Positions 31,339 through 64,000 of a DNA stretch of 64,000 nt are shown piece after piece. Position 1 is the stretch's first letter. Every line of letters starts with the position of its first letter. The notes under the pieces were generated by a model that was not told where the DNA came from, ran no database searches, and saw only the letters and a list, made by a program, of their open reading frames with translations. Source of the DNA: a virus. A program made the translations under genes and the position numbers. The DNA lies in the IMG/VR virus record IMGVR_UViG_3300007351_000003, positions 4,022 through 68,021 of that record. One strand, 5' to 3'.

Positions 31339-31394
31339 GCCCAACCAGTCAGTCCTGCCGTCCAAAAGGACGGCAGCTGACTTCCCCGTTCCTG
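31339..31394. repeat. attC-like site
   Basis: GCCCAAC...GCCGTCC-AAAA-GGACGGC...GTTCCTG; near-copy of 48059-48115. Confidence 0.7.
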
Positions 31395-31937: not shown

Positions 31938-32328
31938 AGAACCTCGCCCAACCATCGTATCGACGGGTCGCAAGAACCACGCCCGTCATCCGGGTGTTCT
32001 CTGCCCGCAAGGTGCATGCGGCTAATAGCTACAAAATATAATCATGCCGTGATCGAAATCTGCTTTTAGCGCATCGAGCAAGCTACACTTACGACACGCG
32101 CCGCATGGTTCGGGATAAAAGCGATTCGAGCGGGCAGAGAACGGGGGCGAGTTGAGAACCTGTCCCCTCGGCTCAGGATTATGAGCTGGACATGTTTCTG
32201 GTTCAAGGCCGTCTATGCATCCAGAAAATAATAGTTTCCCGCAGTTTATATTATGGCATTCGCTCATACTCCCGATCCTCTTCGCCCCGATCCACCGCAA
32301 CTTTTACATTTCACCCAAACACTCATGG

Positions 32329-32790
32329 TTATTCCTCCTTATTCTCAGCGGCAAACTGTTCTTTCGTTTTTCCAAAGTGCTTTTCTGCGCACGGAAGGCA
32401 AAACCAGAAGGAGCAATACAAGCACTTGTACGCATTCGCCATTGAAACTTTACGACCGCATTGTTGGTGATCTTTACCGCTCAACCTTGCGGGGTGCGTT
32501 CCCTGGCAGGTCACATAGTCAGTAAATTCCGTGTCCATTCCGGTCCCGGTGATGGACTTGGTGCGCAGCTTCTCGACCTCGATGCACTGAACTTGATAGC
32601 GTTTTAGTACGGTCTGCTGTGATATTGGCAAGTTGCCTCCCTGACTAACCAGTCGTTCGTGTGGGATGCTTCGCACCCCACAACTCAGCGTTATCGTCCT
32701 ACTATCTCGCCCAAATTGGTCATTTCTTCGATTGACCATGCCGATTTTATAGTCGGCTGCATTGATGATTTCTTTGTGTATGAGGACCAT
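32329..32790 (-). CDS. Hypothetical protein with C-terminal zinc finger
   Basis: CGRKV...YKCLYCSFWFCLPCAEKHF. Confidence 0.5.
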   Translation of the reverse strand: MVLIHKEIINAADYKIGMVNRRNDQFGRDSRTITLSCGVRSIPHERLVSQGGNLPISQQTVLKRYQVQCIEVEKLRTKSITGTGMDTEFTDYVTCQGTHPARLSGKDHQQCGRKVSMANAYKCLYCSFWFCLPCAEKHFGKTKEQFAAENKEE

Positions 32791-33806: not shown

Positions 33807-35195
33807 TCAATGCCCTCCGTATTTTTTTTCTGCGTTTTCGAACCGTGTGAACCTGTTCAGGAAAGTGAGATCCACCTTCCCAATGGGCCCGTTTCTCTGC
33901 TTCCCAATGATAACTTCTGCCCGGCCGCGCCTTTCACAAAGGCATTCACCGTCAATAGGACATTCACACTTGTTGTATACTTCGGCCCGGTAAATAAACA
34001 GGATCACGTCTGCGTCTTGCTCTATGGCTCCGGATTCTCTCAGGTCGGCAAGCATGGGCCGCTTTTCCTTCCCCGGCCTGTTTTCCACTGCTCGGTTCAA
34101 CTGGGAGAGCGCTATCACCGGTGTTTTCAGTTCCTTTGCCAGCGCCTTGAGTGATCGTGATATGTTTGATATTTCCTGTTCTCGGCTGCCCTCATTCCCC
34201 TTCCCGCGCATCAGCTGCAGGTAATCCACAATAACCAAGTCCAGCCCCTGATCCGCTTTTAATCTCCTTGCTTTTGCGCGCAGTTCGAGGGAGGAAATAG
34301 CTGCCGTATCATCGATATAAATTTCCGCATCCGACATTGTGCCGGCTGCATGGGAAAGGGGAGACCAGTCGCGTTCTGCCAATTGCCCGGTCCGGATTCG
34401 GTGCGCGTCCACCCTTGCCTGTGACCCCAGCATGCGAAGCACCAACTGCTCTTTCGACATTTCCAAACTGAACACTGCTACCTTCTGCCTTTTCTCGATT
34501 GCTGCATATTCAGCAATATTGAGAGCGAATGCGGTCTTTCCCATGGACGGTCGGCCAGCAATAATAATCAAATCGCTCGGCTGGAGGCCAGACAGCATGT
34601 CATCAAGATCCACAAACCCGGTTGCCACCCCAGTGATCTTCTCTTTTCTTTCATACAACCTCTCAATCATCCCAAAGCTATCCCCCACGATCTGGCGCAT
34701 GGGGGAAAATGAATCCTGAGTCTTCTTTTGGGCTATTGTGAATATCTTCTCTTCTGCTTGATCCAGAAGTTCGTCAATACTCATTGTGCGGGCATCGTCG
34801 TAACTCTGGGTGATGATGTCGGTAGCGGAGTGGATCAGTTGGCGCAGGACCGATTTTTCGCGTACAATCCGGGCGTGGTTTTTAATGTTCGCGGCAGTTG
34901 GGACCAAACTGACTAGAAACGCAAGATATGAGGCTCCGTCCACCTGTTCAAGGCCCACCTTGCCGCGGATCGCATCCGGGAGTGTAACCAGGTCAATTAC
35001 TTCCCCACCCTCATACATTTCCGCCATGACACTATAGATTCTACGATGGGAGTCTTTATAAAAATCATCGGCGGTCAGAAGGTCGACAACATTTTCTATT
35101 GCGGAATTTTCAATGAGTATGGCGCCCAGCACCATCTGTTCGGCTTCAAGGTTTTGCGGCGGCAGTTTCTGAAGGCTGATTTCACTTTGCGACAT
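33807..35195 (-). CDS. dnaB: Replicative DNA helicase
   Basis: LPPQNLEAEQ; AGRPSMGKT Walker A; VIVDYLQLM; LSQLNR; DLRESGAIEQDAD; IIGKQRNGP. Confidence 0.97.
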   Translation of the reverse strand: MSQSEISLQKLPPQNLEAEQMVLGAILIENSAIENVVDLLTADDFYKDSHRRIYSVMAEMYEGGEVIDLVTLPDAIRGKVGLEQVDGASYLAFLVSLVPTAANIKNHARIVREKSVLRQLIHSATDIITQSYDDARTMSIDELLDQAEEKIFTIAQKKTQDSFSPMRQIVGDSFGMIERLYERKEKITGVATGFVDLDDMLSGLQPSDLIIIAGRPSMGKTAFALNIAEYAAIEKRQKVAVFSLEMSKEQLVLRMLGSQARVDAHRIRTGQLAERDWSPLSHAAGTMSDAEIYIDDTAAISSLELRAKARRLKADQGLDLVIVDYLQLMRGKGNEGSREQEISNISRSLKALAKELKTPVIALSQLNRAVENRPGKEKRPMLADLRESGAIEQDADVILFIYRAEVYNKCECPIDGECLCERRGRAEVIIGKQRNGPIGKVDLTFLNRFTRFENAEKKYGGH

Positions 35196-36327
35196 TGAAT
35201 ATCTCCATTTCTTTTGCTTTATATAATCGCTGTAGTTCCGTCCACTTCATGCCGAATTTTTTAAATTCTGTGTTTGCCTCATCCGACATAACTGGTTGGC
35301 TGGTGTAGTTTACATTGTCCAATTCTTTGGCGAGTTCTTCTTGTGCGGCATTATATGTATTGCCCTCGGGCTTTTTGGGCTCCTGCCATTCCACCCAATC
35401 CTGCCAGTTATTGAACCAAGTGGATCCGTTTTTTGGTTTCTTCCATGCATTTTCCTTCATGGCAAGGTGCGTGATGTAGTTGTCAAGTGCCTTATCAATC
35501 TTGGCCAATTCATCCAGGGTGTTTACTGTAGCCTTAAAATGGCGTAATGCCTCTTTTTTACCATCCTTGTTGGGGTACCGGTTCCATCGGACCATAAATT
35601 CATTTTCATGATTAATCGACTTTTCTTTTGTAGTTTCTTTTGTAGAGTTTTCTTTTGTATGTCCTGTTTTCGGTAATGACTCTTTACCTTTTTCGGTAAC
35701 ACTCATTTCCTTTTTCGGTAAGGCCGTGCTTTTTCTTTTTTCGGTAATCATACTTCGCAAAAAAGTTGACATGGCTGTCCTATTAGTGTGTGACTTCCCG
35801 TGACAACTTTTACATAATGTGATTAAATTATCATCCGTGTTATTTGTCTGATTAAAATCAATATGATGGACAGGTAAAAATTCTTTCGTAATATGCCCTT
35901 CATATCCACAAACCATACACGCGTTACCATCGGTCACCCTTATCTTGTTTTTTATTTCTGTTATACTTACACGTCCTTTTAATATTTCCTTTTTCGGTAA
36001 TGGTTTCCATGTATGAAAATCTTTATTGAAACAGTATGTTGAACACCATCCGTTTCCTTTTTCGGTAACGTTGTTTCCTTTTTTGGTAATAAGATTCATC
36101 GAAGTCAATTTATTGATGGCTTGGCACACCCGTGTCTTTGACATGCCCGTACCATCTACAAATTGAGAAAGGGAAATATCATCTTCCTTTTTGTGCCATC
36201 CATATGTTTTCCTGAAAATGAAATCGAGAACTTGACGCGCTTCTCCAGGTATTCTTGTTTTGGCGAGCGCATCCATTATTTCATTTGCAATATCTGTATG
36301 GCCGTTTTCTGCTTGTGGATTTGCCAA
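35182..36327 (-). CDS. Replication initiator (lambda O-like N-terminus) with internal HNH domain
   Basis: QAENGHTDIANE...FIFRKTYGWHKKED; CxxC...VHHID...NLITLCKSCH; C-terminal RWNRYPNKDGK. Confidence 0.85.
   Translation of the reverse strand: MANPQAENGHTDIANEIMDALAKTRIPGEARQVLDFIFRKTYGWHKKEDDISLSQFVDGTGMSKTRVCQAINKLTSMNLITKKGNNVTEKGNGWCSTYCFNKDFHTWKPLPKKEILKGRVSITEIKNKIRVTDGNACMVCGYEGHITKEFLPVHHIDFNQTNNTDDNLITLCKSCHGKSHTNRTAMSTFLRSMITEKRKSTALPKKEMSVTEKGKESLPKTGHTKENSTKETTKEKSINHENEFMVRWNRYPNKDGKKEALRHFKATVNTLDELAKIDKALDNYITHLAMKENAWKKPKNGSTWFNNWQDWVEWQEPKKPEGNTYNAAQEELAKELDNVNYTSQPVMSDEANTEFKKFGMKWTELQRLYKAKEMEIFNVAK
35667..36089. repeat. Replication origin iterons (core TTTTCGGTAA)
   Basis: Copies at 35667, 35690, 35712, 35738, 35991, 36059 and a variant at 36081, inside the initiator gene. 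Confidence 0.85.
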
Positions 36328-37141: not shown

Positions 37142-38320
37142 CTATAAAAGCAATCCTACTTGTGCTGTTCTCTCTTTCTGTAGGGGCTCATACGCCCGCT
37201 GGATCTCGCAGCCGATCCATTGCCGCCCCAGCTGCTCGGCAACTTGGCCGGCGGTCCCGCTTCCGAAAAACGGATCAAGAACAATGTCGCCCGCCCGGGA
37301 CCCTGCGAGGATGCAAGGTTCGATTAATTTTTCTGGGAACGTCGCAAAGTGTGATCCGCTATACGGTTGCGTCGCCACTTTCCAAACGGATCTTTTATTT
37401 CTCATCTCAACTACGTCTCGGACTGCGTTAGAAAAACTTGCATTCTGTTTACTTCCCTTGGCATTCATTGCGGCTTTCGGGTTGACACCCGCTTTTACCA
37501 TGTGATCTAAAGAACGCGCTATCGTCTGGCCTCCGGGCCCTCCGTCGGCATATTTGTGGCTGTCGCTTCGGCCCCGAGCATACCGGGCGTGCGTGTCAAG
37601 GGAGGCTGGTTCCATAATCGCCGCCGCATCGTAGTAGTAGCGTTCCGTCTTGGAAAGAAGAAAAATATATTCATGCGACTTCGTTGGGCGATCCTTTACG
37701 GACTCTGGCATACACTGCGCCTTCTCCCATACAATGTCACACCTGAGATACCAGCCGTCAGCACGCAGGGCAAAGGCCACCATCCACGGAATGCCGACGA
37801 GGTCTTTCTGTTTCAGCCCAGGCGGTACGGTATGCCCGAGCGTGTTCCCGACGTCCTTATACTTGTTGTCCGGCACTTGGTATGATCTCGCGGCCGCGTA
37901 TGTATCCCCAAGATTCAACCACAGCGTTCCGTCATCGGCCAAAAGATCCCGCACAAATCTGAAAATCTCAACTGAGTGCTCAACGTAAAGTTGCGGAGTA
38001 GGCTCAAGCCCGAAGCAGCCGAGCCATGCACCGCATTTCTGGCACCACGTATGACTTGAATCAAAGCGTGACCCGAGCGTATGGTTCGGATCGCTGGCCG
38101 TAGTGCTTCCAGCGTTTCCCTTTGTGGAGTTTTTGAAACCCGTTTCCTGCGGACCCCATTCGTGGTCACACTCAGTATCTCCACCCCACACTGTCGGGTT
38201 ATTCCCATAATCCCGCAGCCCCCAATATGGCGGACTCGTGACGCAGGTTTGTACCTTCACGCCGTCCACTATCAGGCGCTTCATTGTTTCCCTGCAATCT
38301 CCGAAAAAGCACTTATTCAC
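37142..38320 (-). CDS. Beta-class amino (N4-C/N6-A) DNA methyltransferase
   Basis: TSPPYW motif IV before DPFFGSGT motif I; HFATFP. Confidence 0.92.
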   Translation of the reverse strand: MNKCFFGDCRETMKRLIVDGVKVQTCVTSPPYWGLRDYGNNPTVWGGDTECDHEWGPQETGFKNSTKGNAGSTTASDPNHTLGSRFDSSHTWCQKCGAWLGCFGLEPTPQLYVEHSVEIFRFVRDLLADDGTLWLNLGDTYAAARSYQVPDNKYKDVGNTLGHTVPPGLKQKDLVGIPWMVAFALRADGWYLRCDIVWEKAQCMPESVKDRPTKSHEYIFLLSKTERYYYDAAAIMEPASLDTHARYARGRSDSHKYADGGPGGQTIARSLDHMVKAGVNPKAAMNAKGSKQNASFSNAVRDVVEMRNKRSVWKVATQPYSGSHFATFPEKLIEPCILAGSRAGDIVLDPFFGSGTAGQVAEQLGRQWIGCEIQRAYEPLQKERTAQVGLLL

Positions 38321-38340
38321 CCTTCAAACTCCTTCAGCCA

Positions 38341-38802
38341 TTATTTATTCTGCGCTTCTCTAAGTTTCATGTATTCACTGTTTGCCGGTATCTTGATATC
38401 GCAGCCAATGCTCTGGGCCCAGTCAAGTATTTCCGTGGTGTATTGGTATGCCTCTCCGACATCAAGTGCGGCAGTCGGTCTCAATACTTCATGGACTGTC
38501 TTTTTGCCGGTTACAACATCGGTGAATTCTCTCTGCACCCAGCCGAGAAATTTATTTTTCAACATATCTTTTACCCACTCAGGCGAACAATCAGTCCTGC
38601 CTTTGTTGATCAGGTATTTACTAATCTCCTGGTATATGACATGCTGAAATGCGTTTTGCGAAAGGGACCTATGCTCTCTCCATGGGGTAAAGGTGATGCG
38701 CCATCCTTCTTTCGGGATGCTCACTTTTAGCAACCGGGAGCATTCATCTATTTGCTCTGCGGTTGTTGCTCTGTATGATTGAGGAGTTGACATATTGACC
38801 AA
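38341..38802 (-). CDS. NinB/YbcN-like recombination protein
   Basis: RSLSQNA...EISKYL...VKDMLKNKFLG...TAALD. Confidence 0.75.
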   Translation of the reverse strand: MVNMSTPQSYRATTAEQIDECSRLLKVSIPKEGWRITFTPWREHRSLSQNAFQHVIYQEISKYLINKGRTDCSPEWVKDMLKNKFLGWVQREFTDVVTGKKTVHEVLRPTAALDVGEAYQYTTEILDWAQSIGCDIKIPANSEYMKLREAQNK

Positions 38803-39741
38803 CTATCCGCACAACCCGTATGCCGATTGACATTCCGATGAATCTATCAAAGCCATCATGTCCTGCTGCTTGCCTCCGTGCGTTGTCCGGGACCAGCGCA
38901 CTACATCGCGTATGCCCCGGCCCATGAGATCGCCCCGGCTGTCGTCCGGCGACGGGAAAAAAGAAGATTCCTGACGCTTGCTCGCCAGCGCAACCATGCT
39001 TTCCCATTCGGCTATACGTTCAATCTGCTCTGGAAACCGTTTTGAAATTTCCCGGATTTCCCCCTTCGCGGCATTGATGCAAGGCATGCAGCCCACTCGA
39101 TTCATTCCCATCGAATAAAGCGGGTTTGGCTTTATGCCGTGCCGAGCGTGTATCTTGAAACAGTCCTCGGCGGTCCAGTCCAATATCGGTCGGTAATTAT
39201 ACAGTCTGCCGTCGTCCACGCGCTCAAGAGGAAGGAGACGAGCCCGGCTCTCTGATTCGCTTGCTCGCACTCCCTGCCACGAGAAAACCATAAACGCCTC
39301 GTTGTCCAGTAGGTCAATATTGTATTCAAGTAGCGGCATGGTCTTCAAGAACTGTGTACAGAACTGGGCCTTTCGTGACGGGAAGCGCCCTTTCCAGATG
39401 CAAAGATCAAGGTACGGGTTCCCGGTCGGGACCAGTGCTTTTGCGGCCCGCTCGATCACGCCTTGCGGCACACCCTTATCCGCCCACTTCGACAGCACGT
39501 ACTCTTTCTTTCCCGCGATCTGCAGGATAAAATCCCGTTTCAGCCGGTCGATCTTGATTCCCAACTTGTACTCTAAATATTCCAGGTACTCGTAAACGAT
39601 AGGATGCTCGTTCCCTGTGTCGGCAAAGACAAACCGGCACTCATCCATGTTGTACTGCTCAATGGCAAGCAGTGCCGTTGCCGTTGAATCCTTCCCACTA
39701 CTCATCGATACCACGCGCAAAACTTTCAACATGAAAATCAC
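38803..39741 (-). CDS. PAPS-reductase-family (adenine nucleotide alpha hydrolase) protein
   Basis: SMSSGKDS PP-loop; FADTGNEH; QGVRASES; RVGCMPC. Confidence 0.88.
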   Translation of the reverse strand: MIFMLKVLRVVSMSSGKDSTATALLAIEQYNMDECRFVFADTGNEHPIVYEYLEYLEYKLGIKIDRLKRDFILQIAGKKEYVLSKWADKGVPQGVIERAAKALVPTGNPYLDLCIWKGRFPSRKAQFCTQFLKTMPLLEYNIDLLDNEAFMVFSWQGVRASESESRARLLPLERVDDGRLYNYRPILDWTAEDCFKIHARHGIKPNPLYSMGMNRVGCMPCINAAKGEIREISKRFPEQIERIAEWESMVALASKRQESSFFPSPDDSRGDLMGRGIRDVVRWSRTTHGGKQQDMMALIDSSECQSAYGLCG

Positions 39742-39848
39742 CCCTATCTAACTACACATTTTAAAATGATTCGATCCATTGGTTTCCCCCGGCTGCCATA
39801 CTGCGGTACGTGACCTACCGGCTTATTTGTGGGCTGGCCGGGGAAGAT

Positions 39849-40190
39849 TTATTTACTCAAACTCAATTTCAATAATCGTTTGGTCTTCCGCTCCTCTTTC
39901 TTGCGAGTACGATACTTCTTTGATGATGCTGGCGTTATCGTCTGCAAGTATTCCTGCTTTTGTAATCCCGTCCAAGACAGCTTTAATACTCGCTCCGTCG
40001 GGATCTGTGAGATGTTTTCTGATGCTATGCACTCTGATACGGCATGGTGTATGGCATCCCGTACTTTCTTTCTTTGCCATGGGCTCATGGCGAGAAGCGC
40101 GTTCCATGTCGGCAGCCTGAACGGGAGTGCCAACACTATTTTTTTGACAGGCACCACAGATGAGCTTATTTCCTTTCCATTTACATCCAT
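39849..40190 (-). CDS. Overlapping ORF carrying the RusA-like N-terminal segment
   Basis: TAATG coupling to upstream gene; LALPFRLPTWN...RKKVRDAIHHAV resembles the RusA N-terminus. Confidence 0.5.
   Translation of the reverse strand: MDVNGKEISSSVVPVKKIVLALPFRLPTWNALLAMSPWQRKKVRDAIHHAVSECIASENISQIPTERVLKLSWTGLQKQEYLQTITPASSKKYRTRKKEERKTKRLLKLSLSK
39853..40080 (-). CDS. rusA: RusA-like Holliday junction resolvase catalytic core
   Basis: TDPDGASIKAVLDGITKAGILADD matches RusA DxD...D...DD; start uncertain. Confidence 0.7.
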   Translation of the reverse strand: MAKKESTGCHTPCRIRVHSIRKHLTDPDGASIKAVLDGITKAGILADDNASIIKEVSYSQERGAEDQTIIEIEFE

Positions 40191-40627
40191 TAATGCAAGC
40201 CATCTCTCTTTGCCTTTTCTTCAAGTTTTTCTTTATATTCGATCAATAACTGTTCATACACATCCTCGAAATCCAACATACATATCGCCCGGGCCAGCTG
40301 CCAAAGCCTGTCATAAAGCCCCGGAGATCTCTTCTCAATCCATGCCTTGAAAGCATTCTCGTTCGAGTGTGCTTCTGCATGGCATCCTACACACAGAGGG
40401 ATCAAGTTTTCTTTCAAAGTGCAGGTGTTTCCATATTTCCGGTGAACAATATGGTGCGGGTGCAGCGCCATGGACGGGCTGTCCGGCCGGTTGCACTTCG
40501 CACACCGGGCATCCAGGAGTACGATCTTGCAGGCGACGGCAATGGCTTTATCCTGCCATTCCTTCTGGGGTGTCTGTCGTTCTGGTTTCGGGACCGGCTT
40601 TGTAAAAACGCTCACGCCACCCTCCAA
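40190..40627 (-). CDS. NinG-like HNH nuclease
   Basis: CAKC...LHPHHIV...NLIPLCVGCH. Confidence 0.75.
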   Translation of the reverse strand: MEGGVSVFTKPVPKPERQTPQKEWQDKAIAVACKIVLLDARCAKCNRPDSPSMALHPHHIVHRKYGNTCTLKENLIPLCVGCHAEAHSNENAFKAWIEKRSPGLYDRLWQLARAICMLDFEDVYEQLLIEYKEKLEEKAKRDGLH

Positions 40628-40896
40628 TAGAGGTATTTATTAGGACCTGCGCTCGGCACAGCCTTCCTGTCCAATAACCCCATATCCCGCATTTCCCGGA
40701 GCGCCTGGGCCGCTGTTGTCTGTATCATGTCGTGCTGACTCGCCAGTTCGCGGGATGAGATGCAAGGGACTTTACGGAGTAGGTTGAAAATTCTCTTCTG
40801 CGTAGGTGACAGTCCTCGGATAAGCACGGCATTCATGTCCGGGGCTATCTGCGGGTGCTTCTTTTTCAGGCGTATGAGGTCTTTGAGGGAAATCAC
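40612..40896 (-). CDS. Winged-HTH (MarR-like) DNA-binding protein
   Basis: LSPTQKRIF...ISSRELA...AQALREMRDMGLL; GTGA-coupled start. Confidence 0.7.
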   Translation of the reverse strand: MISLKDLIRLKKKHPQIAPDMNAVLIRGLSPTQKRIFNLLRKVPCISSRELASQHDMIQTTAAQALREMRDMGLLDRKAVPSAGPNKYLYWRVA

Positions 40897-41261
40897 GCCT
40901 TCACCGCCTTGAAATAGGATATGAGGTCCTCCAGTGAATGAAACACCGGTATCCCGAGAGAATATGCGCGTTCCAGTTCCTTCTGTGCCCCGCGGCTGTT
41001 TTCCCAACCTTCCACGAGTAAAATTGCGTCACTTACTTCCATCCACGCTAACGACTGCGCCTGTATCATCTCAATCGGGATAGACTCGCCTTCGCGGAGT
41101 TGGAAAAATAAACTGTAATCAATAAACGGGGAAAATACCGCAAAACCTTCTAGGAGCAGCTGGGTGGATATCCGCATGCCCTTCCGGAGATTGTCGAGGA
41201 ACTTGATAGGGTTGGGGTCGCTCATCGCGCCAGCACAATAGATACGCTTCTTGGTATTCAA
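40893..41261 (-). CDS. Nucleoside 2-deoxyribosyltransferase-like (DUF1937/DUF4406) protein
   Basis: RIYCAGAMS...FSPF...WENSRGAQKE...LGIPV; TTG start with GGGAGG SD. Confidence 0.75.
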   Translation of the reverse strand: MNTKKRIYCAGAMSDPNPIKFLDNLRKGMRISTQLLLEGFAVFSPFIDYSLFFQLREGESIPIEMIQAQSLAWMEVSDAILLVEGWENSRGAQKELERAYSLGIPVFHSLEDLISYFKAVKA

Positions 41262-41271
41262 TGATTCCTCC

Positions 41272-44262
41272 CTATGCGTGGGCATAAACCGCATGATTGG
41301 CGTAATTTGCCTTCACCAGTGCTGCCGCGATCCCTGGGCATACCGAATTACCGCACAGTCTTACCTGTGCTGTTTTGGTGAATGGCTTACCGTGCATATC
41401 GTGCTCGATAATATAGGTGTCGTAGAATCCCTGAGCACGGAATATTTCGCGTGGCGCGAGCATGCGGAGACCTATATCAATGATTTGGTAGTCTTCCCCG
41501 TGGACCTTTACTAAACCGAAACGATCTCTTGTTGAAATTGTATTAATTGGCTTCCGTATGTCATGGGATTCACTGGCTGCATGGTATTGCAAGAGGAATG
41601 CCCGGACTTCTCCGAAGTGAAGGCCGCCAGCCGTGATTGTCTGCAGCGGTTCACGTGAGTCCTGACCGATATTCGTACCCTTGAGCTTAACCAAGTGTGA
41701 CGTTACAAGGCTGTCTTTGTCACGTTGAGTAACCGTCCGCACTGGTTCGTCGGCAGCATATCCTATGCTCGATCCCATGTATCGAACAAGACTCGCGGCT
41801 ACCAGGGAATGATGGTCTACTGACGTGACCGTGCCGAGCGGCATTTCAACCTGCGAGCCCACGACTCCGCCGTAGTGTTTGGCGAGGAAGGCAGAAACGA
41901 GGGCATGCCTTTGAGTTGCGGTAATTGTTGGTAGTGGATCATCGACAGGATGGCAACGGTCCTCGTCACCTTTTGAAGAATAGAGTGAAGACAAAACAGG
42001 AGATACCAGCGCCAGCTCTCCCCGGTGCGCAGCGGTTATCGTCGGAAATGGGTCTTTAATATCATTGGTCCTATCGCCTCCCTGATGGGTCAGTGGAATA
42101 AGATGTGGCATGACGAGTGCGCTGTCTGCCTTTGCCGTAACCGTTGCAACAGGTTCCTCTATATGCCTCGGCCTTGACTGTCCTGCCCGTCCGCCAACTC
42201 CTATTATATGGGGCGCAACGAGCGCAAAGTGTCCGCCCTTTGTCTCCGCACAGATAGTTCTGAGCGGTTCATCAATGGGCATAGAACGCGGCGATGATCC
42301 GTTGGCGTGCTCAGTAATATACGGGACTACCAGTCCGTGCCGGTTCTCCGTAGTTTGCGTTGCCAGCGGATCGCCAACAGATTGCCCGCGGAACTCTCCG
42401 CCCTTATCGCCATAGTACGTCACGATAAACGGCTCAGTCGAATCTGTGACATACCGCTTAATACCCATGGCAATGCGGCGTTGCGTGGCTTCGGCCAGCG
42501 GTTTCTTGCGCTCGAATATAGACGGCGCGGGAATATCCCATTGGATGCACTCGGCCGCAGTTCTCCAAGGCAGGAGTTTTCCACTCTTTACGGCTGCGCT
42601 TTTCGGGTCACCATGTGTCGGCTCGGGCCACACAATAGGCTGTCCGTCTGAGCGGGCAATGAGAAAGAGACGCTTCCGGATGGTCGGGTCGCCATAATCA
42701 CAAGCCCTGAGCATTTTATGGTCAACTTCGTAACCATTTTTACGGAGGGCATTGAGAAACGAACGGAAGGTTCGGCCCTTGCGTTTCGGACACGGGTACT
42801 GCTTGCCGTCCGTTTTGGTGATCAGCGGTCCCCAAGTGATGAATTCCTCGACGTTCTCGAGCATGATTACCCGTGGTTTTACCGTAGCAGCCCAGCGGAG
42901 AACTACCCAGGCAAGCCCACGGATCTTCTTACTGACAGGTTTCGTGCCCTTGGCCTTAGAGAAATGTTTGCAATTATGAACGACAATACCTTCAACAATG
43001 TAGCTTTCATCGTCCTCGACGCCAATATTAAAAACATCGGTTTCAACAACTGCGGGTTCCTGGCTACGAATAGGACACCACTCAAGGCCACTCTCGGCAA
43101 TAGTTTGACTATGACCATCAACAATATTTTCTCGCCATCGAAGCAGGTAAATTGGCCTCGCGTTGACAATTCGGCCTTGAATTTCATTGCTGTTTTGTAA
43201 AAGATGAACTGTGACTGTTTTCCCAAGAGAATTCAGGAGGGCTTTGATTCCGAAAGCGAGGTGTTTGGATACCGTGCGGCATTCGGTAAATTGTTTTCCT
43301 GCCCATCCATCCGCAGAAAGGTATCCGTCAAGCAAAGACTGTTTAAAGGCTGGTCCGATACCGAGTGCCCAAGCTGGAATTCGTTTTGACTCGGCCCTGT
43401 GCCCAAAGTGTTCTCGTAACCATTCCACTAAACCACGGTGGTTTGTACTGAATTGATATGCTGTACCAGTCTCCCGCTCGTGCCACGCCAACTCATTAAA
43501 ACCGGCACGTTCTCCTTCACGCATCCATGTGTTGATTGTCTGGCGAAGTTTTTCTACCTCATGCTTACCGCAGGTGAGAACCAATTCAGCGCGTGTATCT
43601 GTGAGGCGTGTCCAGCCGTCTCCAAGGTAACGACCAACAAGCCACATAAAGCGGTTGTCTGCAACCATGCCGCGACCCAACACAGGAGGTATTGTTGACG
43701 CCGGGAAGGTCGTAGGAGTTGCCCAATACCACCCTTTTGTGAGAAGCGATGCTGGTGCCCAGCCAGCGTCTCCCAGAACACGCCCATATCCTCGAGGTTC
43801 GGTACACCATACGCTTTTACGATGACGAACATAGAATGGATGCTCAGGACTCACAAGTAACCCGGGATGCCCATGTCCCTTAATTGACATCAACGGCTTG
43901 CGTGTATGAGATACCTCTGTTACCCGTCCCCAACGCAGTTTATGTGTGAGTACTTCATCGCCAACTTCGATTTCTTCAATGGCTTGATAGCCCCGGCGCG
44001 TGAGTACCAGTGTTCCTGCCGGGAAACAGTCCGGGCTGAACCATGCCAGGCCGACGGGCCTGCCGGCGCATTCAACCATCGGGTTGACTTTCCACACGTC
44101 TTCCCGGAGATGCTTTGTGAACGGGTGATTTACCTGATGCATCCGGATCGCGTCCGCATCGTGGTTTACAGCGATATCGATCGGGCGCCCAAGGGCCCGC
44201 TCTATCCCCGTTGATGCTCCGCCGCCGCCCGCAAAATTATCGACTACGATTTCTCCTGTCAT
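41272..44262 (-). CDS. C5 cytosine DNA methyltransferase interrupted by an intein
   Basis: DNFAGGGG motif I; SPD|C motif IV; LENVEEF; RKRLFLIAR; CGNSV; EPLxTIT repeats. Confidence 0.93.
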   Translation of the reverse strand: MTGEIVVDNFAGGGGASTGIERALGRPIDIAVNHDADAIRMHQVNHPFTKHLREDVWKVNPMVECAGRPVGLAWFSPDCFPAGTLVLTRRGYQAIEEIEVGDEVLTHKLRWGRVTEVSHTRKPLMSIKGHGHPGLLVSPEHPFYVRHRKSVWCTEPRGYGRVLGDAGWAPASLLTKGWYWATPTTFPASTIPPVLGRGMVADNRFMWLVGRYLGDGWTRLTDTRAELVLTCGKHEVEKLRQTINTWMREGERAGFNELAWHERETGTAYQFSTNHRGLVEWLREHFGHRAESKRIPAWALGIGPAFKQSLLDGYLSADGWAGKQFTECRTVSKHLAFGIKALLNSLGKTVTVHLLQNSNEIQGRIVNARPIYLLRWRENIVDGHSQTIAESGLEWCPIRSQEPAVVETDVFNIGVEDDESYIVEGIVVHNCKHFSKAKGTKPVSKKIRGLAWVVLRWAATVKPRVIMLENVEEFITWGPLITKTDGKQYPCPKRKGRTFRSFLNALRKNGYEVDHKMLRACDYGDPTIRKRLFLIARSDGQPIVWPEPTHGDPKSAAVKSGKLLPWRTAAECIQWDIPAPSIFERKKPLAEATQRRIAMGIKRYVTDSTEPFIVTYYGDKGGEFRGQSVGDPLATQTTENRHGLVVPYITEHANGSSPRSMPIDEPLRTICAETKGGHFALVAPHIIGVGGRAGQSRPRHIEEPVATVTAKADSALVMPHLIPLTHQGGDRTNDIKDPFPTITAAHRGELALVSPVLSSLYSSKGDEDRCHPVDDPLPTITATQRHALVSAFLAKHYGGVVGSQVEMPLGTVTSVDHHSLVAASLVRYMGSSIGYAADEPVRTVTQRDKDSLVTSHLVKLKGTNIGQDSREPLQTITAGGLHFGEVRAFLLQYHAASESHDIRKPINTISTRDRFGLVKVHGEDYQIIDIGLRMLAPREIFRAQGFYDTYIIEHDMHGKPFTKTAQVRLCGNSVCPGIAAALVKANYANHAVYAHA
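42973..44028 (-). mobile_element. Intein (352 aa) with LAGLIDADG homing endonuclease
   Basis: CFPAGTLV start, IVVHN end, +1 Cys; GRYLGDG and DGYLSADG motifs. Confidence 0.92.
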
Positions 44263-46852: not shown

Positions 46853-47269
46853 TTATTTTTCTTTTGCCATCTGCATGAGTCGCGCAGCTACAACGACCTC
46901 ATCAACTTGGTATCGTTTCGCAAAAAATGACACAACATCCGGTCGATCCTTGTATTTTTCCCAGTCGGGAAGAAACAGGCTATCCGGCATCAGTAAGTGC
47001 AGCGCAAATTCATTCGCTTCTTTCTCGTCTCGATCTTCTAGTATCGTGGTCATATTTACCCTTGTTATCGTGTCTTGCGCTCGCTTATTCCATAGCCCAA
47101 TCGCGCCTCTGCGTGATTTCTTCGGATAAGTACGAACTAGGCATTTTAGGCATTCGATCTGCCACCATTTATGATTGACCATCGTGCTTTCATAGTTATC
47201 AACCCGCGCTTTACCGCCGCAGAATGGACACGATAACAAAACGGTCGAATCAGATTTCGCTTTGCTCAA
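46853..47269 (-). CDS. Lar-family zinc finger fused to an ImmA/IrrE-like C-terminal fragment
   Basis: CPFCGG...CLKC...AIGLWNKR, then EKEANEFALHLLMP. Confidence 0.7.
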   Translation of the reverse strand: MSKAKSDSTVLLSCPFCGGKARVDNYESTMVNHKWWQIECLKCLVRTYPKKSRRGAIGLWNKRAQDTITRVNMTTILEDRDEKEANEFALHLLMPDSLFLPDWEKYKDRPDVVSFFAKRYQVDEVVVAARLMQMAKEK

Positions 47270-47290
47270 CTGTTCACCTCCACGTTGGTG
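47231..47290. repeat. attC-like site
   Basis: CGATAAC...GGT[C]GAA/TTCACC...GTTGGTG, 60 bp. Confidence 0.8.
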
Positions 47291-47310: not shown

Positions 47311-47456
47311 CTTTTACGTCTGGGCGGGCTGGTAGGGACTTTCGGTTCTGCCACCATCACCCGACGATCGGGAGTCCTCCCGGCGAAGGGATTCTCATCC
47401 ACGGTACGGTATCGTTTTAGCGACAGCCGCCGCCAGTTCCCGCCCAGACGTAAAAG
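47311..47456 (-). ncRNA. 146-nt structured RNA candidate, copy 1 (strand assumed from operon direction)
   Basis: 18-bp closing stem and internal hairpins; 139/146 identical to 63489-63634. Confidence 0.65.
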
Positions 47457-47539
47457 CTTTTTATATTAAGCGCCGCACCAATGGGGCCGTTAAGTCGTGA
47501 CCGGCAAGCATTGGTTGATGCGTCGCACACTACGCGCCG

Positions 47540-47604
47540 CACCAACCAAGCCGTTCAAGACCGACCGCCCCTAACGGGGCGGCGACTTAACGGCCCCATT
47601 AAAT
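47540..47604. repeat. attC-like site (ATT variant)
   Basis: GCACCAAC...GTT[C]AAG/CTTAAC...ATTAAAT. Confidence 0.8.
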
Positions 47605-48058: not shown

Positions 48059-48115
48059 ATTTAACCAGTCAGTCCAGCCGTCCAAAAAGGACGGCAGCTG
48101 ACTTCTGCGTTATGG
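48059..48115. repeat. attC-like site
   Basis: ATTTAAC...AGT[C]CAG/CTGACT...GTTATGG, 57 bp. Confidence 0.8.
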
Positions 48116-51599: not shown

Positions 51600-51668
51600 A
51601 AGCGTGACCGCTGGAATGCTTGCGTAACTCGCAGGCGTAGCCAGTCGAAGTTGACGCGATTGTTACGA
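51594..51668. repeat. Degenerate attC-like site
   Basis: Imperfect hairpin ending TTGACGCGATT-GTT; left AAC lost. Confidence 0.45.
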
Positions 51669-51702: not shown

Positions 51703-51840
51703 ATGGACGAAAAAGTTTACGATCTTTCATTAGAAGATATCAGACCATTGATTGACCTACCTGCCGAATATGAATTGGTTCGCGCAGATAGCAACGGAAA
51801 CGGAACAGGCGTGATTGTCAAACTGGTCAAGCGATCATAA
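51703..51840 (+). CDS. 45-aa cassette-like ORF (not in ORF track)
   Basis: MDEKVYDLSLEDIRPL...; flanks GTTATGATT / GATCATAAT pair. Confidence 0.5.
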   Translation: MDEKVYDLSLEDIRPLIDLPAEYELVRADSNGNGTGVIVKLVKRS

Positions 51841-51894
51841 TGCGGCGGTAAGCCTCGGCACGCGAAGCGACGGGTTCGACCCGTTTGGTTAAGA
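51835..51894. repeat. Degenerate attC-like site
   Basis: TCATAAT-GCGGCGGTAAGCCTCGGC...GTTAAGA; left arm resembles 62609. Confidence 0.55.
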
Positions 51895-60821: not shown

Positions 60822-61073
60822 ATGAGTAACGAGCAGCCGCAAAAAGTAGTGAATACTCTCCCGGCCGAGGGCCTTTGTCGACTCAGGCAGATCATAGGAT
60901 ACAGGGATAAAGATTCTGGTGAATGGGTGCCAGGCTTCCTTGCTATCAAAAAAAGTGCATGGTATCGGGGGATCATAGAAGGCAAATACCCGAAGCCTGC
61001 AAAGAAGTTTGGCACTCGCTGCACTTTATGGGATGTTGATGATATCAGGAAGCTGAAAGAAAAGGCATCGTAA
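60822..61073 (+). CDS. alpA: AlpA-family excisionase/regulator
   Basis: LCRLRQII...IKKSAWYRGI.EGKYPKP.KFG.RCTLW. Confidence 0.85.
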   Translation: MSNEQPQKVVNTLPAEGLCRLRQIIGYRDKDSGEWVPGFLAIKKSAWYRGIIEGKYPKPAKKFGTRCTLWDVDDIRKLKEKAS

Positions 61074-61126
61074 TGCGATACTGACCCCTGCTACTTTAGC
61101 GTGGGTGTCGAGCACTCTGGTTAGTT
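61068..61126. repeat. attC-like site (AAT variant)
   Basis: CT-GAC-CCC pairs with GGG-[T]-GTC-[G]-AG; ends GTTAGTT. Confidence 0.75.
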
Positions 61127-61148
61127 TTCCAGAGTGCGGAAAGGCAGC

Positions 61149-61391
61149 ATGATAAAGATTACAGACAGACGGTCAATTTTAAAACAGGTCATCAGCGGGA
61201 TTTGCTGGTCTCCGGTGGCTCTCATCGGCTTATTTATTGCTGCGCTCGTGGGCCTGATGGCATACGGTATTACAATTACCATTCTTGGCGGCGGGCTGCT
61301 TAAAGTCATTATTGGATTAGCGAAGTCTGCCGGTATTATGGCCGTGGTTTTCGGATACATCATTGCATTTATATGGTCGAACCAAAACTAA
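61149..61391 (+). CDS. Cassette gene: two-TM membrane protein
   Basis: Hydrophobic 80 aa; stop in TAAC. Confidence 0.65.
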   Translation: MIKITDRRSILKQVISGICWSPVALIGLFIAALVGLMAYGITITILGGGLLKVIIGLAKSAGIMAVVFGYIIAFIWSNQN

Positions 61392-61489
61392 CGCGAGCAT
61401 GAGCCGCGTACACATTGGAGGGCAAATGAAGCATTTTATTAAAACCACAACGGAGCAGATCGGGCGACGGCTCGATGCTCTGGTTAGAA
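61386..61489. repeat. Long attC-like site (104 bp)
   Basis: GAGCAT-GAGCCG pairs with CGGCTC-[G]-ATGCTC; ends GTTAGAA. Confidence 0.85.
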
Positions 61490-61614
61490 TTTGTCATGTT
61501 CATTGGCATTCTAAGTTTGCGAGATCGTGGATATGTCACTCATACCCATGCTATTATCCTGTTTCTGATTATCGCTGCCGATGTGGGCACATTAAGACAT
61601 ATCGCACAAATTGA
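61426..61614 (+). CDS. Cassette ORF initiating inside the attC loop (62 aa, Cys/His-rich)
   Basis: GGAGGG SD and ATG within the attC variable loop. Confidence 0.45.
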   Translation: MKHFIKTTTEQIGRRLDALVRICHVHWHSKFARSWICHSYPCYYPVSDYRCRCGHIKTYRTN

Positions 61615-61677
61615 TTTTAACGCGGCGCTGACCTGCCGCAGCGAAGCGGAGGCCAGTGTCGAGCGTCCTGGTTAGAA
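61615..61677. repeat. attC-like site
   Basis: GCT-GAC-CTG pairs with CAG-[T]-GTC-[G]-AGC. Confidence 0.85.
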
Positions 61678-61680
61678 TTT

Positions 61681-62304
61681 ATGCCAATGATCGCAGCACT
61701 ATATGTTATGAAAAACGGCGTCTATTATGGGTTGCCCGACGTGGACCCATGGGACGCTCACCGCGACGCCCGGAAGTACGCAGGGCCTTTCCCGGTTGTC
61801 GCACATCCGCCCTGTGAACGATGGGGCCGCTATTGGAGCGGAGGGCCGATGTTGGCAAGGACGCCGAAGGCCAAAAAAAAGGGCGACGATCAGGGATGTT
61901 TTGAGGCGGCGATAAATGCAGTACGCCGATTCGGCGGAGTCATTGAACATCCCGAGGGCAGCCACGCATGGACGGCATTCGGTTTGAACAAGCCACCGCG
62001 AACCGGGGGATGGGTGACGGCAGACTTTGAGGGCGGCTGGACATGTTGTGTCGAACAGGGACATTACGGGCACAGAGCTCGCAAGGCAACCTGGTTATAT
62101 GCGCACAGCGTAGAATTGCCGGATTTGAAGTGGGGTTCGTGCGGTAAAAAGGAACGGCTGGAAGACGGATACCATTCAACGGAAGAGCGGCGGCGGGCAG
62201 TTCGTACCGGGATTTGCCAGAGGTTATCGAAAAACCAGCGCACCGCGACGCCGCAGGAGTTCCGGGATTTGTTGATTGGAATTGCAAAGACGGTACGGAA
62301 TTAA
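61681..62304 (+). CDS. Cassette gene: minimal C5-methyltransferase-like protein
   Basis: AHPPC (motif IV-like), VIEHP (VI-like), QGHYGHRARKATW (VIII-like); no FxGxG. Confidence 0.65.
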   Translation: MPMIAALYVMKNGVYYGLPDVDPWDAHRDARKYAGPFPVVAHPPCERWGRYWSGGPMLARTPKAKKKGDDQGCFEAAINAVRRFGGVIEHPEGSHAWTAFGLNKPPRTGGWVTADFEGGWTCCVEQGHYGHRARKATWLYAHSVELPDLKWGSCGKKERLEDGYHSTEERRRAVRTGICQRLSKNQRTATPQEFRDLLIGIAKTVRN

Positions 62305-62306
62305 AA

Positions 62307-62365
62307 TTCCAACGCTTGCGTCAACCGCGAGCGAAGCGTAGACGGTTTGGACGCAATTGTTATGC
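62307..62365. repeat. attC-like site (59 bp)
   Basis: TTGCGT-C-AACCG pairs with CGGTT-[T]-G-[G]-ACGCAA. Confidence 0.85.
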
Positions 62366-62387
62366 GCCATCACGGAAAAGGAGAACA

Positions 62388-62606
62388 GTGAAAACTATTA
62401 TCACGAAACAACAGTTCACAGAGTTAGTGGGGATTCTGGCACTCGCAGATCATGAAATGAAAATCCTCAACACCCTAAACGATGCGGCACACGCTATCAC
62501 AGGTGAAAAAGATGATTGGGGACATACGGCAGATGCGATCTGGGACGACAACCTACGAGACGCGAAAAAATTGTTGAGGAAGCTCAAAATCATCGTTAAA
62601 AAGTAA
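62388..62606 (+). CDS. Cassette gene: 72-aa hypothetical protein
   Basis: GTG with AAGGAG SD. Confidence 0.6.
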   Translation: MKTIITKQQFTELVGILALADHEMKILNTLNDAAHAITGEKDDWGHTADAIWDDNLRDAKKLLRKLKIIVKK

Positions 62607-62608
62607 GC

Positions 62609-62672
62609 GCATAATGCGGCAGTTAAGCCTCGGCCCCGTCAGGGGCCGAAGGTCTTGAACTCCTGGTTCTCT
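62609..62672. repeat. attC-like site (AAT variant)
   Basis: GTT-AAG-CC pairs with GG-[T]-CTT-[G]-AAC. Confidence 0.85.
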
Positions 62673-62776
62673 CAGCGCTGATTTATAGCGCGTTTTGAGA
62701 AGGAGTTCAGGCTTAACTGCCGCATTCCCTCAGCGCGGCTCATGTAAAAGGCTTTAAGCTGAAAGGAGATTACACA

Positions 62777-62923
62777 ATGGCAACGAAAATCGAAAAGGTG
62801 CTTCAAGATACAGAAAAATGGCTTGAAAAAGAAAAAACGTGGGAAGACGATTTAGACGGATTAGATGCCATAGATATAGCGAAGGCTGTAATTCATCGGA
62901 TCAGAGAGCGGCTTTCAGCTTAA
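62777..62923 (+). CDS. Cassette gene: 48-aa protein (not in ORF track)
   Basis: MATKIEKVLQDTEKW...; AAAGGAG SD. Confidence 0.55.
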   Translation: MATKIEKVLQDTEKWLEKEKTWEDDLDGLDAIDIAKAVIHRIRERLSA

Positions 62924-62945
62924 AGCCTACCTCTAATCAGCGCTG

Positions 62946-63002
62946 AGGGAACCCGACAAAATGAGGGGTGCGGAGCATCCCGCTCGATTTTAATGGTTAG
63001 CC
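62946..63002. repeat. attC-like site
   Basis: AAAAT-GAG-GGG pairs with CCC-[G]-CTC-[G]-ATTTT. Confidence 0.8.
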
Positions 63003-63035
63003 GCTTTCATCGGTTTAGCCAGAAAGGATACTATT

Positions 63036-63350
63036 ATGAGTTGGGGAGAAAGAAGCTGCAAGCGGCCTTGTCGTTGTCCTCAGAAATGTAAAATGGAAAC
63101 GTGTAATGTTGATTGTTCCTCGTATGAATGGGATGGTGTGACAAAACCAGATTCGGCGTCAAAAATAATGAAATATTGGCCTTGTGAATGTCCTTTTATC
63201 GTGGGGCAGAATAGGTGTCAAGTTCATGATGCTGAAGCTACATGGATAATGTTCGATACGCCATTACGGGGTTATGACAACCAGAGAGTACAGGAGGCCC
63301 TTAAATCACTGGAAGAGCTGTGCAGGTCGGGCAAGAAGTTAAGCGGCTAA
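63036..63350 (+). CDS. Cassette gene: Cys-rich hypothetical protein
   Basis: 104 aa; stop in TAAC. Confidence 0.6.
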   Translation: MSWGERSCKRPCRCPQKCKMETCNVDCSSYEWDGVTKPDSASKIMKYWPCECPFIVGQNRCQVHDAEATWIMFDTPLRGYDNQRVQEALKSLEELCRSGKKLSG

Positions 63351-63405
63351 CCCCGGGGCTAAGCCATCGCCCGTAGGGCGATTGGTTTTGAACTCCTGGT
63401 TGATA
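63345..63405. repeat. attC-like site
   Basis: GGCTAAC...ATCGCCC-GTA-GGGCGAT...TT[G]AACTCCTG-GTT. Confidence 0.8.
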
Positions 63406-63488
63406 CGGCGCGTAGCTTGCGCCGTGCCAACCGATTAGAGACTTCAGCGGCTCAAGGCCCCCATTGGTGCGGCGCTTAATATAAAAAG

Positions 63489-63634
63489 CTTTTACGTCTG
63501 GTCGGGAACTGGCGGCGGCTGTCGCTAAAACGATACCGTACCGTGAATGCGAATCCCTTCGCCGGGAGGACTTCCGATCGTCGGGTGATGGTGACAGAAC
63601 CGAAAGTCCCTACCAGCCAGACCAGACGTAAAAG
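63489..63634 (+). ncRNA. 146-nt structured RNA candidate, copy 2
   Basis: Inverted copy of 47311-47456 with a compensatory G-C to U-A change in the closing stem. Confidence 0.65.
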
Positions 63635-63654
63635 GTTTCCGGCGCGAAGCGCCG

Positions 63655-63712
63655 GGAGAACGTCAAAATGACGCGCAAGCGTAGCGCGTCGCTATCGATT
63701 TTATGGTTAGGC
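63655..63712. repeat. attC-like site
   Basis: AAAAT-GA pairs with TC-[G]-ATTTT; ends GTTAGGC. Confidence 0.8.
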
Positions 63713-63724
63713 CACGGAGGGGAA

Positions 63725-63964
63725 ATGAAAAAGCCATTAGACATAGCCAACAAATGGAGAGATGAAAACGGGTACATCGGCAAGGGTGGCGTCATTGTTA
63801 TTTTAAATGGTGAGGTCAACAGTTGGGTGAATGAGTTACGCAATCCTGAGCATTGGGTGCCGGGATGTATCGCAGTAGATGAACGCGGCAACGAGTGGCG
63901 CACTGTCGGAGGAACCGAACAGGCCGGGGCTGATCGTTGGGAGCCGATAAAGATAGTGGCCTAA
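63725..63964 (+). CDS. Cassette gene: 79-aa conserved hypothetical protein
   Basis: GGAGGGG SD; stop in TAAT of the next, truncated attC. Confidence 0.65.
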   Translation: MKKPLDIANKWRDENGYIGKGGVIVILNGEVNSWVNELRNPEHWVPGCIAVDERGNEWRTVGGTEQAGADRWEPIKIVA

Positions 63965-64000
63965 TGGGGCCAGCTGACCCATATTCCAGATAAGGACATC

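Follow-up and report, generated by a model that had tools for sequence, protein, structure and literature searches.

The window analysed here is a stretch of 64,000 nucleotides spanning bases 4022-68021 of IMG/VR virus record IMGVR_UViG_3300007351_000003 (83,217 bp, estimated completeness 93%). The source is a temperate tailed phage with lambdoid-style gene order. Toward the right end of the window, small early genes are separated by imperfect hairpins that resemble attC, the recombination site of integron gene cassettes. The initial annotation reported nine such hairpins, and re-reading and folding place all nine at the coordinates claimed, each running from AAC or AAT to GTT. The extent given for the array, 61068-63965, needs revision: nine sites do lie there, but the array reaches ~68340 in window-equivalent coordinates and recurs at four other places. 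Across the 83-kb record there are ~19-20 sites in five clusters, plus remnants, the clusters besides the right-arm array lying at 47.1-48.1, 51.6-51.9, 31.3-32.7 and ~70.4 kb.

Sites and cassettes

The sites are listed below with bit scores from two covariance models, R1 and R2, which are described in the next section. Sequence beyond the window end is numbered either in window equivalents or on L001, in which 4037-4041 correspond to window-equivalent 64037-64041 and 8201 to 68201.

Right-arm array
s1, 61068-61126 (+): AAT...GTT; first right-arm site, starting at the TAA of an upstream open reading frame (ORF) of 83 amino acids (aa); R2 12.5 bits (weak); extrahelical G 9 nt ahead of GTT
s2, 61386-61489 (+): 104 nt; layout GGCTC[G]ATG CTCTG GTT; R1 12.3 and R2 33.7 bits; variable loop contains the Shine-Dalgarno sequence and ATG of the next ORF
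s3, 61615-61677 (+): R1 23.7 bits, E 9e-4; R2 58 bits
s4, 62307-62365 (+): R1 15.7 bits, E 0.1; R2 54.2 bits
s5, 62609-62672 (+): AAT...GTT; missed by R1 and R2; forms a subfamily with s7 and 47540-47604; L box AGTTAAGCC / GG[T]CTT[G]AACT near-identical to the attC_aadA1 bottom strand
inverted, internally deleted copy of the s5 arms, 62690-62726 (+): begins within 40 nt after s5
s6, 62946-63002 (+): R2 23.8 bits, E 2e-4; outside the R2 training set
s7, 63345-63405 (+): s5 subfamily, recognised by anatomy
s8, 63655-63712 (+): R1 11.5 bits; R2 48.4 bits
s9, 63959-64000 (+): crosses the window end and ends with GTTAC at L001 4037-4041
two decayed sites, window-equivalent ~66105 and ~67529: GTT lost
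right-arm site, window-equivalent 67893-67978 (+): R1 23.0 bits
s13, window-equivalent 68159-68205: short site

Other clusters
m0, 48059-48115 (-): left arm; R1 23.8 bits, E 8e-4
m1, 47540-47604 (-): left arm; s5/s7 subfamily; upstream of the second copy of the RNA cargo
m2, 47231-47290 (-): left arm; R1 20.0 bits, E 8e-3; R2 56.1 bits
terminal half-site GACACGATAA/C, 47064-47074 (-): without hairpin; complementary at 11/11 positions to the right flank of m2
e1, 51611-51668 (+): rightward early operon; R2 19.3 bits, E 4e-3
e2, 51835-51894 (+): R2 22.4 bits, E 5e-4
c1, 32643-32696 (-): the genome's best canonical-attC match; R1 26.9 bits, E 1e-4
c2, 31946-32002 (-): R2 14.9 bits
c3, 31339-31394 (-): R1 10.9 bits; R2 23.2 bits
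site after RtcB, window-equivalent 70422-70542: found with R2

The right-arm array overruns the window end by ~4.3 kb and encloses a P4-type integrase gene and its attP. Past the window end the order is the GTTAC of s9, the integrase (-), attP, a NADAR gene, the two decayed sites, then 67893-67978 and 68159-68205. The array stops just before a phrog_2293 gene and ssb. At its downstream end, before the Shine-Dalgarno sequence of the phrog_2293 gene, a 15-nt direct repeat (GTTAAACCACAAGGA, L001 8201-8215 and 8325-8339) lies on both sides of an ORF-less element of 124 nt. This element has GACAAAATGAGGGGTGCGG in common with s6 and could represent an empty cassette or a junction of attI type. Within the array, s5 and its inverted copy form a ~120-nt palindrome with an 18-nt perfect inverted repeat (62613-62630 / 62709-62726). 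A second flank copy, CCCTCAGCGC, near s5 pairs with the left flank of s6, and the whole rearrangement (62609-62730) looks like a scar at an attC site.

The cargo between the right-arm sites is as follows.

61149-61391 (+): 80 aa, hydrophobic; TAA ends at AA/C of s2; no Pfam or PHROG match
61426-61614 (+): 62 aa, Cys/His-rich; starts inside s2, with GGAGGGCAA preceding the ATG at 61426
61681-62304 (+): 207 aa, phrog_12600 (PHROG E 3.5e-66)
62388-62606 (+): 72 aa, no match to known families
62777-62923 (+): 48 aa
63036-63350 (+): 104 aa, Cys-rich; TAA ends at AA/C of s7; matches only a 40-residue domain common to small phage proteins
63466-63655 (+): ORF-less RNA cargo, with a second copy at ~47311-47500 (-) in the left arm
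63725-63964 (+): 79 aa; TAA ends at AA/T of s9

Elsewhere the cargo includes two Lar-like restriction-alleviation ORFs, a NADAR protein, a phrog_2293 protein and small ORFans that are Cys-rich, zinc-finger-type or hydrophobic. The cargo is phage-type and not bacterial-integron-type. The phrog_12600 protein, a very widespread phage protein, has at least 8000 homologues; family members are 70-77% identical across metagenomes and carry HPPCERW and IEHPEGS motifs. The two copies of the RNA cargo are 96% identical over 190 gap-free columns and sense-oriented in both early arms. Its fold has a long closing stem (z -3.1), and Rfam has no family that it matches; the 190-nt segment is probably a non-coding RNA of the phage that serves as cassette cargo. 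The 48-aa ORF stands between the arms of a perfect 17-bp inverted repeat (62749-62765 / 62912-62928), which overlaps the Shine-Dalgarno region of that ORF. The repeat would either lengthen the R-box stem in the circular cassette or place the ORF within a stem of the mRNA.

Resemblance to integron attC sites

The conserved triplets AAC ... GTT are present in 19 of the 19 listed sites, at triplet-to-triplet lengths of 40-113 nt. L boxes are present, the unpaired central spacer measures 4-6 nt, and an extrahelical G stands 8 nt ahead of GTT at 13 sites, the distance in canonical sites, and 9 nt ahead at six. The likeness is visible by eye when the GGCTT[G]AAC GAATT GTT of attC_aadA1 is set beside the GG[T]CTT[G]AACT CCTG GTT of site 62609. 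In an alignment of eight phage sites that was itself fitted to the model, 94.7% of positions are paired compared with 73.9% in shuffles, and seven of nine L-box pairs show compensatory changes.

The first covariance model, R1, was made for this analysis and is not that of IntegronFinder. It was trained on 20 attC bottom strands from arrays upstream of intI, taken from 80 loci encoding IntI1-type integrases, and only R-box and L-box pairs were modelled. With filters off, the six best phage sites score 15.7-26.9 bits (E 1e-4 to 0.1): 32643-32695 (-) 26.9, 48062-48112 (-) 23.8, 61615-61677 (+) 23.7, 67893-67978 (+) 23.0, 47234-47287 (-) 20.0 and 62307-62365 (+) 15.7 bits. Two more reach 11.5-12.3 bits, and all of these matches fall at positions already predicted by eye. 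In 50 kb of plasmid R100, used as a control, attC_aadA1 scores 74 bits and the best background match 12.9 bits. On 20 held-out integron (IntI) loci R1 finds 27 sites at 24.8-74 bits, so that the top phage sites are on a par with the weaker of the genuine attCs. With default filters there are five matches of at least 15.7 bits in this phage; 1.13 Mb of other phage and prophage DNA holds one, and none of 20 bits or more. The prediction that an attC model would score above background is thus borne out with R1, with six sites at 15.7-26.9 bits as against that one match. The lone control match (18 bits; L167 19727-19781 (-)) lies on a Logan contig together with a homologue of phrog_12600 and could be a lone attC or chance.

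The second model, R2, was trained on the eight R1 phage matches. It adds 62948-63002, 31339-31391, 51835-51894, 51611-51668, 31946-31999 and 70422-70542 and, weakly, 61070-61126, and has no matches in 1.0 Mb of DNA around related phage integrases. BLAST of the phage sites against class 1 attCs shows no similarity, and Rfam at gathering scores finds no family in the window. Hand-made site scans do not discriminate: a loose one gives 606 matches on the plus strand alone and many more on the minus strand, and a strict one gives seven matches compared with 4.9 in shuffles.

From these data the hairpins are likely to be genuine integron-type attC sites that split accessory early genes into cassettes, in several integrase-less arrays of the type known as clusters of attC sites lacking integron integrases (CALINs), carried by a temperate lambdoid-style phage.

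Complementarity between neighbouring sites

The right flank of a site is complementary to the left flank of the next. The pairs quoted in the initial annotation all read correctly (9/9, 7/8, 9/10, 8/9, 17/18, 11/11 and 9/10); the one pair that it omitted, 63401/63650, is weak (4/8). Over the 8 positions beyond the triplets, scored as Watson-Crick matches, the 14 adjacent pairs in four clusters average 5.3/8, compared with 2.3/8 for 328 non-adjacent pairs (Mann-Whitney p = 3e-6). The complementarity is also beyond chance in a permutation test, as had been supposed: none of 100,000 reassignments reaches the observed sum. The two flanks of any one site are not complementary to each other. The neighbour-to-neighbour pattern is thus the chain left by circular cassettes and not a simple palindrome.

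Polarity and the probable mobile unit

The coding strand of R100 aadA1 has the extra C in the 5' arm of its attC (GTT[C]AAGCC). On the bottom strand, GGCTT[G]AAC GAATT GTTAGAC, the extrahelical G lies near the 3' end. R1 separates the two strands by 64 bits (bottom 74, top 9.9), and all 27 of the held-out integron matches fall on the intI strand, opposite the cassette genes. The phage matches lie instead on the local coding strand throughout, plus with plus-strand genes and minus with minus-strand genes, with a single exception, a weak 9.4-bit opposite-strand match at the short site s13. In each of the five clusters, therefore, the attC bottom strand is the gene-sense strand, an arrangement opposite to that of canonical integrons. 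The reversed sites, like the extension of the array past the window to enclose an integrase and attP and the presence of five clusters, go beyond the initial annotation.

Because sense and bottom strand coincide, the crossover (A/C of the 5' AAC) falls at the left end of each site, and the mobile unit should therefore be an attC body with its downstream cargo. Such a unit would read 'C + attC body + GTT + cargo + ...AA', the reverse complement of a canonical cassette. Three observations agree with such a unit. The first is the RNA cassette, which is present in both arms. Along the two copies, identity starts at 30% upstream, is 61% in the attC body before the RNA and 64% between GTT and RNA, reaches 96% over the 190-nt RNA, and falls to 43% in the following site and 33% further on, so that within this one genome the homology between the arms is bounded by AAC points. 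The second is the ORF that begins at 61426 inside s2, where attC body and downstream gene form one unit. The third is the set of ORF limits: ORFs never cross an AA/C point, and a TAA stop ends exactly there in five cases.

A placement of the bottom strand always on the lagging-strand template was considered and rejected as a general rule. The origin is likely to lie near 36 kb, where the O protein and DnaB are encoded, and the 47-48 kb array is therefore on the leading-strand template. Transcription direction is the only orientation rule that fits all five clusters. One possible reason for the co-orientation is that heavy transcription of the operons exposes their non-template strand; alternatively, once a founding site was fixed, only cassettes of matching polarity may have been expressed. 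Under both explanations, a phage cassette would not be expressed in a bacterial array, nor a bacterial cassette in a phage array.

A common transcribed strand also invites a quite different explanation, that the hairpins are phage-specific intergenic repeats acting in mRNA, as RNase III-type processing sites, stabilisers or translation-tuning stems, and are only attC look-alikes. All sites in the five clusters are on the transcribed sense strand, the flank pairing and the 17-bp repeat would enclose ORFs in long-range RNA stems and overlap Shine-Dalgarno sequences, and the genome has no IntI. Such repeats leave unexplained the AAC/GTT triplets with an extrahelical G at the canonical 8 nt, the significant scores with a model built from integron attCs, and the duplication of a unit of attC plus cargo in the other arm. 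About 1.1 Mb of other phage early regions have no such sites. We regard this explanation as quite unlikely.

A possible insertion footprint at the end of the left array

The left array ends in the half-site GACACGATAA/C, which is directly followed by AAGGGTAAATATG, containing the Shine-Dalgarno sequence and ATG of an M78/ImmA-like ORF. When the three left cassettes are deleted in silico, a plain gene junction is restored (CCATAA/CAAGGGTAAATATG). This end of the array would match an IntI-catalysed insertion at a GTT site outside any att site. IntI-mediated insertion outside att sites, at sites termed attG, has been demonstrated in E. coli (Loot et al., bioRxiv 10.1101/2022.09.11.507474). Entry of the phage cassettes at a secondary site of this kind is suggested by the footprint, which the reading of the hairpins as mRNA repeats leaves unexplained. 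At the same junction, at 46853-47182 (-), a Lar-like zinc-finger ORF runs stop-free and in frame into the M78/ImmA-like ORF at the half-site. The M78 part aligns from profile position 63 (of 123) onward, with NEFALH in place of the expected HExxH.

Decay, duplication and points that weigh against attC identity

Several observations speak against the sites being attC sites in working cassettes. The cleavage triplet AAC is replaced by AAT at seven sites, giving a T-G wobble with GTT. Only six of ~19 sites reach E < 0.1 with R1, the others being in the background range or missed, and the s5/s7/m1 subfamily, s1 and s9 are called from anatomy alone. The cluster at 31-33 kb has no chain complementarity (0/8 and 1/8) and is the sole cluster to fail in this respect. 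Part of the array is decayed, as shown by the loss of GTT at ~66105 and ~67529. Sites m0 and c3 share a body at 95% identity but differ in both flanks, a combination that a single-crossover model does not predict. Other phages carry homologues of the cargo (phrog_12600 and the 104-aa domain) in tight operons that lack attC sites; for phrog_12600 these are early operons. The record itself encodes no IntI. Close relatives, metagenome contigs and sequencing runs in which cassette gain, loss or reordering could be compared were sought, and none were found.

The search for relatives covered several parts of the phage. In IMG/VR, kin of the P4-type integrase do not exceed 55% identity, and no sites occur in 1.0 Mb of their loci. 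RecT kin gave three loci, again without sites. No kin of the large terminase (TerL) were found in IMG/VR, the protein being only ~30% identical to those of Stx/933W-type phages, and none of the SbcC-like protein in JGI metagenomes. Neither IMG/VR nor metagenomes contain exact words from the RNA cassette. The site-arm pattern TCGAGCNNNCTGGTTAGNNT gave 11 chance loci, none with sites. Megablast against cultured phages gave no matches, and no sequencing runs are listed for the array and structural region.

The decay could mean that the sites are fossils. The cassettes would then have entered an ancestor through IntI, or through illegitimate recombination with a host integron, and would now be fixed and immobile, with sites in decay. 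The loss of GTT at two sites, the inverted deleted remnant, the AAT found at one third of sites and the absence of IntI all agree with such a history, as do the RNA-cassette copies, which are 61-64% identical outside the RNA core and therefore stem from an old duplication. However, most sites retain the full anatomy with compensatory changes, an indication of selection on the fold, and flank complementarity of 9-18 bp is also retained. Five separate clusters share one polarity, and the 95% identical bodies of m0 and c3 point to a recent event. A fixed and immobile array is thus unlikely. Gain and shuffling of cassettes may still continue, and may depend on IntI.

Probable source of the recombinase

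Profile searches of the 83-kb record for IntI (TIGR02249), Y1_Tnp and Resolvase give no matches. The sole tyrosine recombinase, and the sole PF00589 match, is the P4-type integrase (NF007246, E 5e-81), which has Arm-DNA-bind_3, Phage_int_M and Phage_integrase domains, no similarity to IntI1, and look-alikes mostly from Pseudomonadota. The description of the array as phage-borne and CALIN-like, with IntI from elsewhere, fits this result, and the empty IntI search of the full phage record supports an IntI supplied from outside. Nine sites within 3 kb (61068-64043), called here with our own models and from anatomy, in a record with no IntI place the array among the CALINs, for which IntegronFinder's definition asks for two or more attC sites in ~4 kb without a neighbouring intI. 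It is not a complete integron: no intI stands beside it, and its ORFs are on the bottom and not the top strand.

The integrase gene and attP lie within L001 4037-5480. The GTTAC of s9 overlaps the stop codon of the minus-strand integrase gene, which ends inside the GTTA of that site. A 23-nt tRNA 3'-end look-alike, TTCGAATCACCCCAGGGGCACCA (-), marks attP (core at L001 5457-5480) ~190 nt upstream of the integrase start. The block of integrase, attP and NADAR gene lies between two attC-type sites and resembles a 2-kb cassette. The position of the integrase gene inside the array, with a stop codon that overlaps the GTT of s9, raises the possibility that a phage enzyme, either this integrase or an unrecognised ORFan recombinase, recombines the sites without IntI. 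However, the integrase is an ordinary P4-type enzyme with an adjacent tRNA-type attP and no similarity to IntI1, the 1.0 Mb of related-integrase loci lack such sites, and the record contains no Y1 or serine recombinase. Recombination by a phage enzyme is accordingly very improbable.

With no IntI, Y1 or serine recombinase in the record, a host IntI acting in trans is the most economical enzyme for attC sites of the kind proposed here. Five of six tested phage attC sites recombine with IntI1 (Qi et al. 2023, PMC9892861).

Proposed mechanism

When the DNA is single-stranded or extruded, each site would fold into an attC hairpin. The hairpin has R boxes (AAC/GTT) and, beyond an unpaired spacer, an L box whose extrahelical G stands 8-9 nt from GTT; it also includes a variable loop. 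A host IntI, induced by the SOS response as the prophage is, would cut the folded bottom strand between the A and C of the 5' AAC. It would then join two sites, so that a circle is excised or inserted. Cargo would be expressed by read-through from phage early promoters. The promoters of intI are reportedly LexA-controlled, as Guerin and colleagues are said to have found in 2009, and IntI would therefore be made just when the prophage is induced.

A broader and more speculative proposal can be built on this. Phages may keep a reversed-polarity cassette pool of their own, made up of anti-defence genes, host-takeover genes and non-coding RNAs, and exchange it between co-infecting or resident phages through SOS-induced host IntI at prophage induction. 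Polarity would keep the phage and bacterial pools apart and would put the foldable strand on the non-template strand of early operons. We consider this conceivable but would not favour it on present evidence.

Genomic context

Genes are on the minus strand left of ~48 kb and on the plus strand right of it, and the array at 61-64 kb is therefore within a rightward early operon. The early-operon location claimed for it is also corroborated by the Cro/CI-type genes, from which the operons diverge. The main landmarks are listed here.

14-28 kb (-): major head protein, portal-type adaptor and large terminase
33.8-35.2 kb: DnaB helicase
35182-36327 (-): replication protein O homologue, containing an internal HNH endonuclease domain (residues 137-181)
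49.2-50.6 kb: Cro/CI-type helix-turn-helix genes
52.9-57.9 kb (+): SbcC-like protein, RecT and a metallo-beta-lactamase-fold (Lactamase_B_2) protein
downstream of the window, in order: P4-type integrase with tRNA-type attP, ssb, RtcB

The phage carries a heavy counter-defence load. It comprises an N6/N4 methylase, a 996-aa multi-domain DNA methyltransferase, a PAPS-reductase-domain protein, a radical SAM protein, NADAR and the RNA ligase RtcB, encoded at 37142-44262 (-) and at L001 5647-6102 and 9192-10427 (+).

Comparison with known systems

Integrons are regarded as bacterial gene-capture platforms, and the published survey found only small and rare phage attC clusters. If the present reading is true, ~20 attC sites organising many of the accessory early genes in both operons would mean that integron recombination drives phage mosaicism and the anti-defence arms race. 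The uniform reversed polarity bears on the interplay of attC strand choice, transcription and the availability of single-stranded DNA, and also on the origin of cassettes, a long-standing question. Sites with AAT cleavage triplets, sites with long R-box extensions and one with a gene start in its loop are ready assay substrates.

Stem-loops between small early genes have a precedent in T4-type phages. Arbiol and colleagues are said to have described promoter early stem-loops (PeSLs) there in 2010 and to have proposed that they mediate modular shuffling. These elements reportedly carry promoters and are thought to act by homologous or illegitimate recombination. We know of no AAC/GTT boxes, extrahelical bases or link to a tyrosine recombinase in PeSLs.

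Classical integrons share with the phage array the R and L boxes, the unpaired spacer, the extrahelical G and the variable loop, in sites of heterogeneous sequence and conserved fold. They also share one ORF per cassette, stops inside the R-box TAAC and complementary cassette ends. In contrast, the phage has no intI and no recognisable attI or Pc, and relative to the canonical polarity its genes are antisense. The complementary flanks are 9-18 bp long as opposed to 7, AAT often stands for AAC, the cargo is phage-type, and expression would come from phage early promoters.

Insertion at attG offers a route into att-less DNA, and the half-site and rebuilt junction (CCATAA/CAAGGG) of the left array resemble it. 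The attG work concerns E. coli chromosomes and class 1 cassettes, and the parts consulted describe no phage target or multi-cassette build-up (Loot et al.).

The closest known systems are the phage CALINs (Qi, Rajabal, Ghaly, Tetu, Gillings 2023, Front Microbiol), in which attC sites likewise lie between small genes, the phage has no IntI and the cargo is linked to countering host defences. The survey counted 17 CALINs in 10,705 phage genomes, each with at least two predicted attC sites; the figured TJE1 has three, and the arrays of TJE1 and PH101 are described as having the typical structure of bacterial cassette arrays (PMC9892861). Phage CALINs are thus already published as small clusters (Qi et al. 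2023), and the extensive array of reversed polarity described here differs from those. It comprises ~19-20 sites in five clusters, with every gene on the attC bottom strand, encloses its own integrase and attP, and has an RNA cassette in both early arms.

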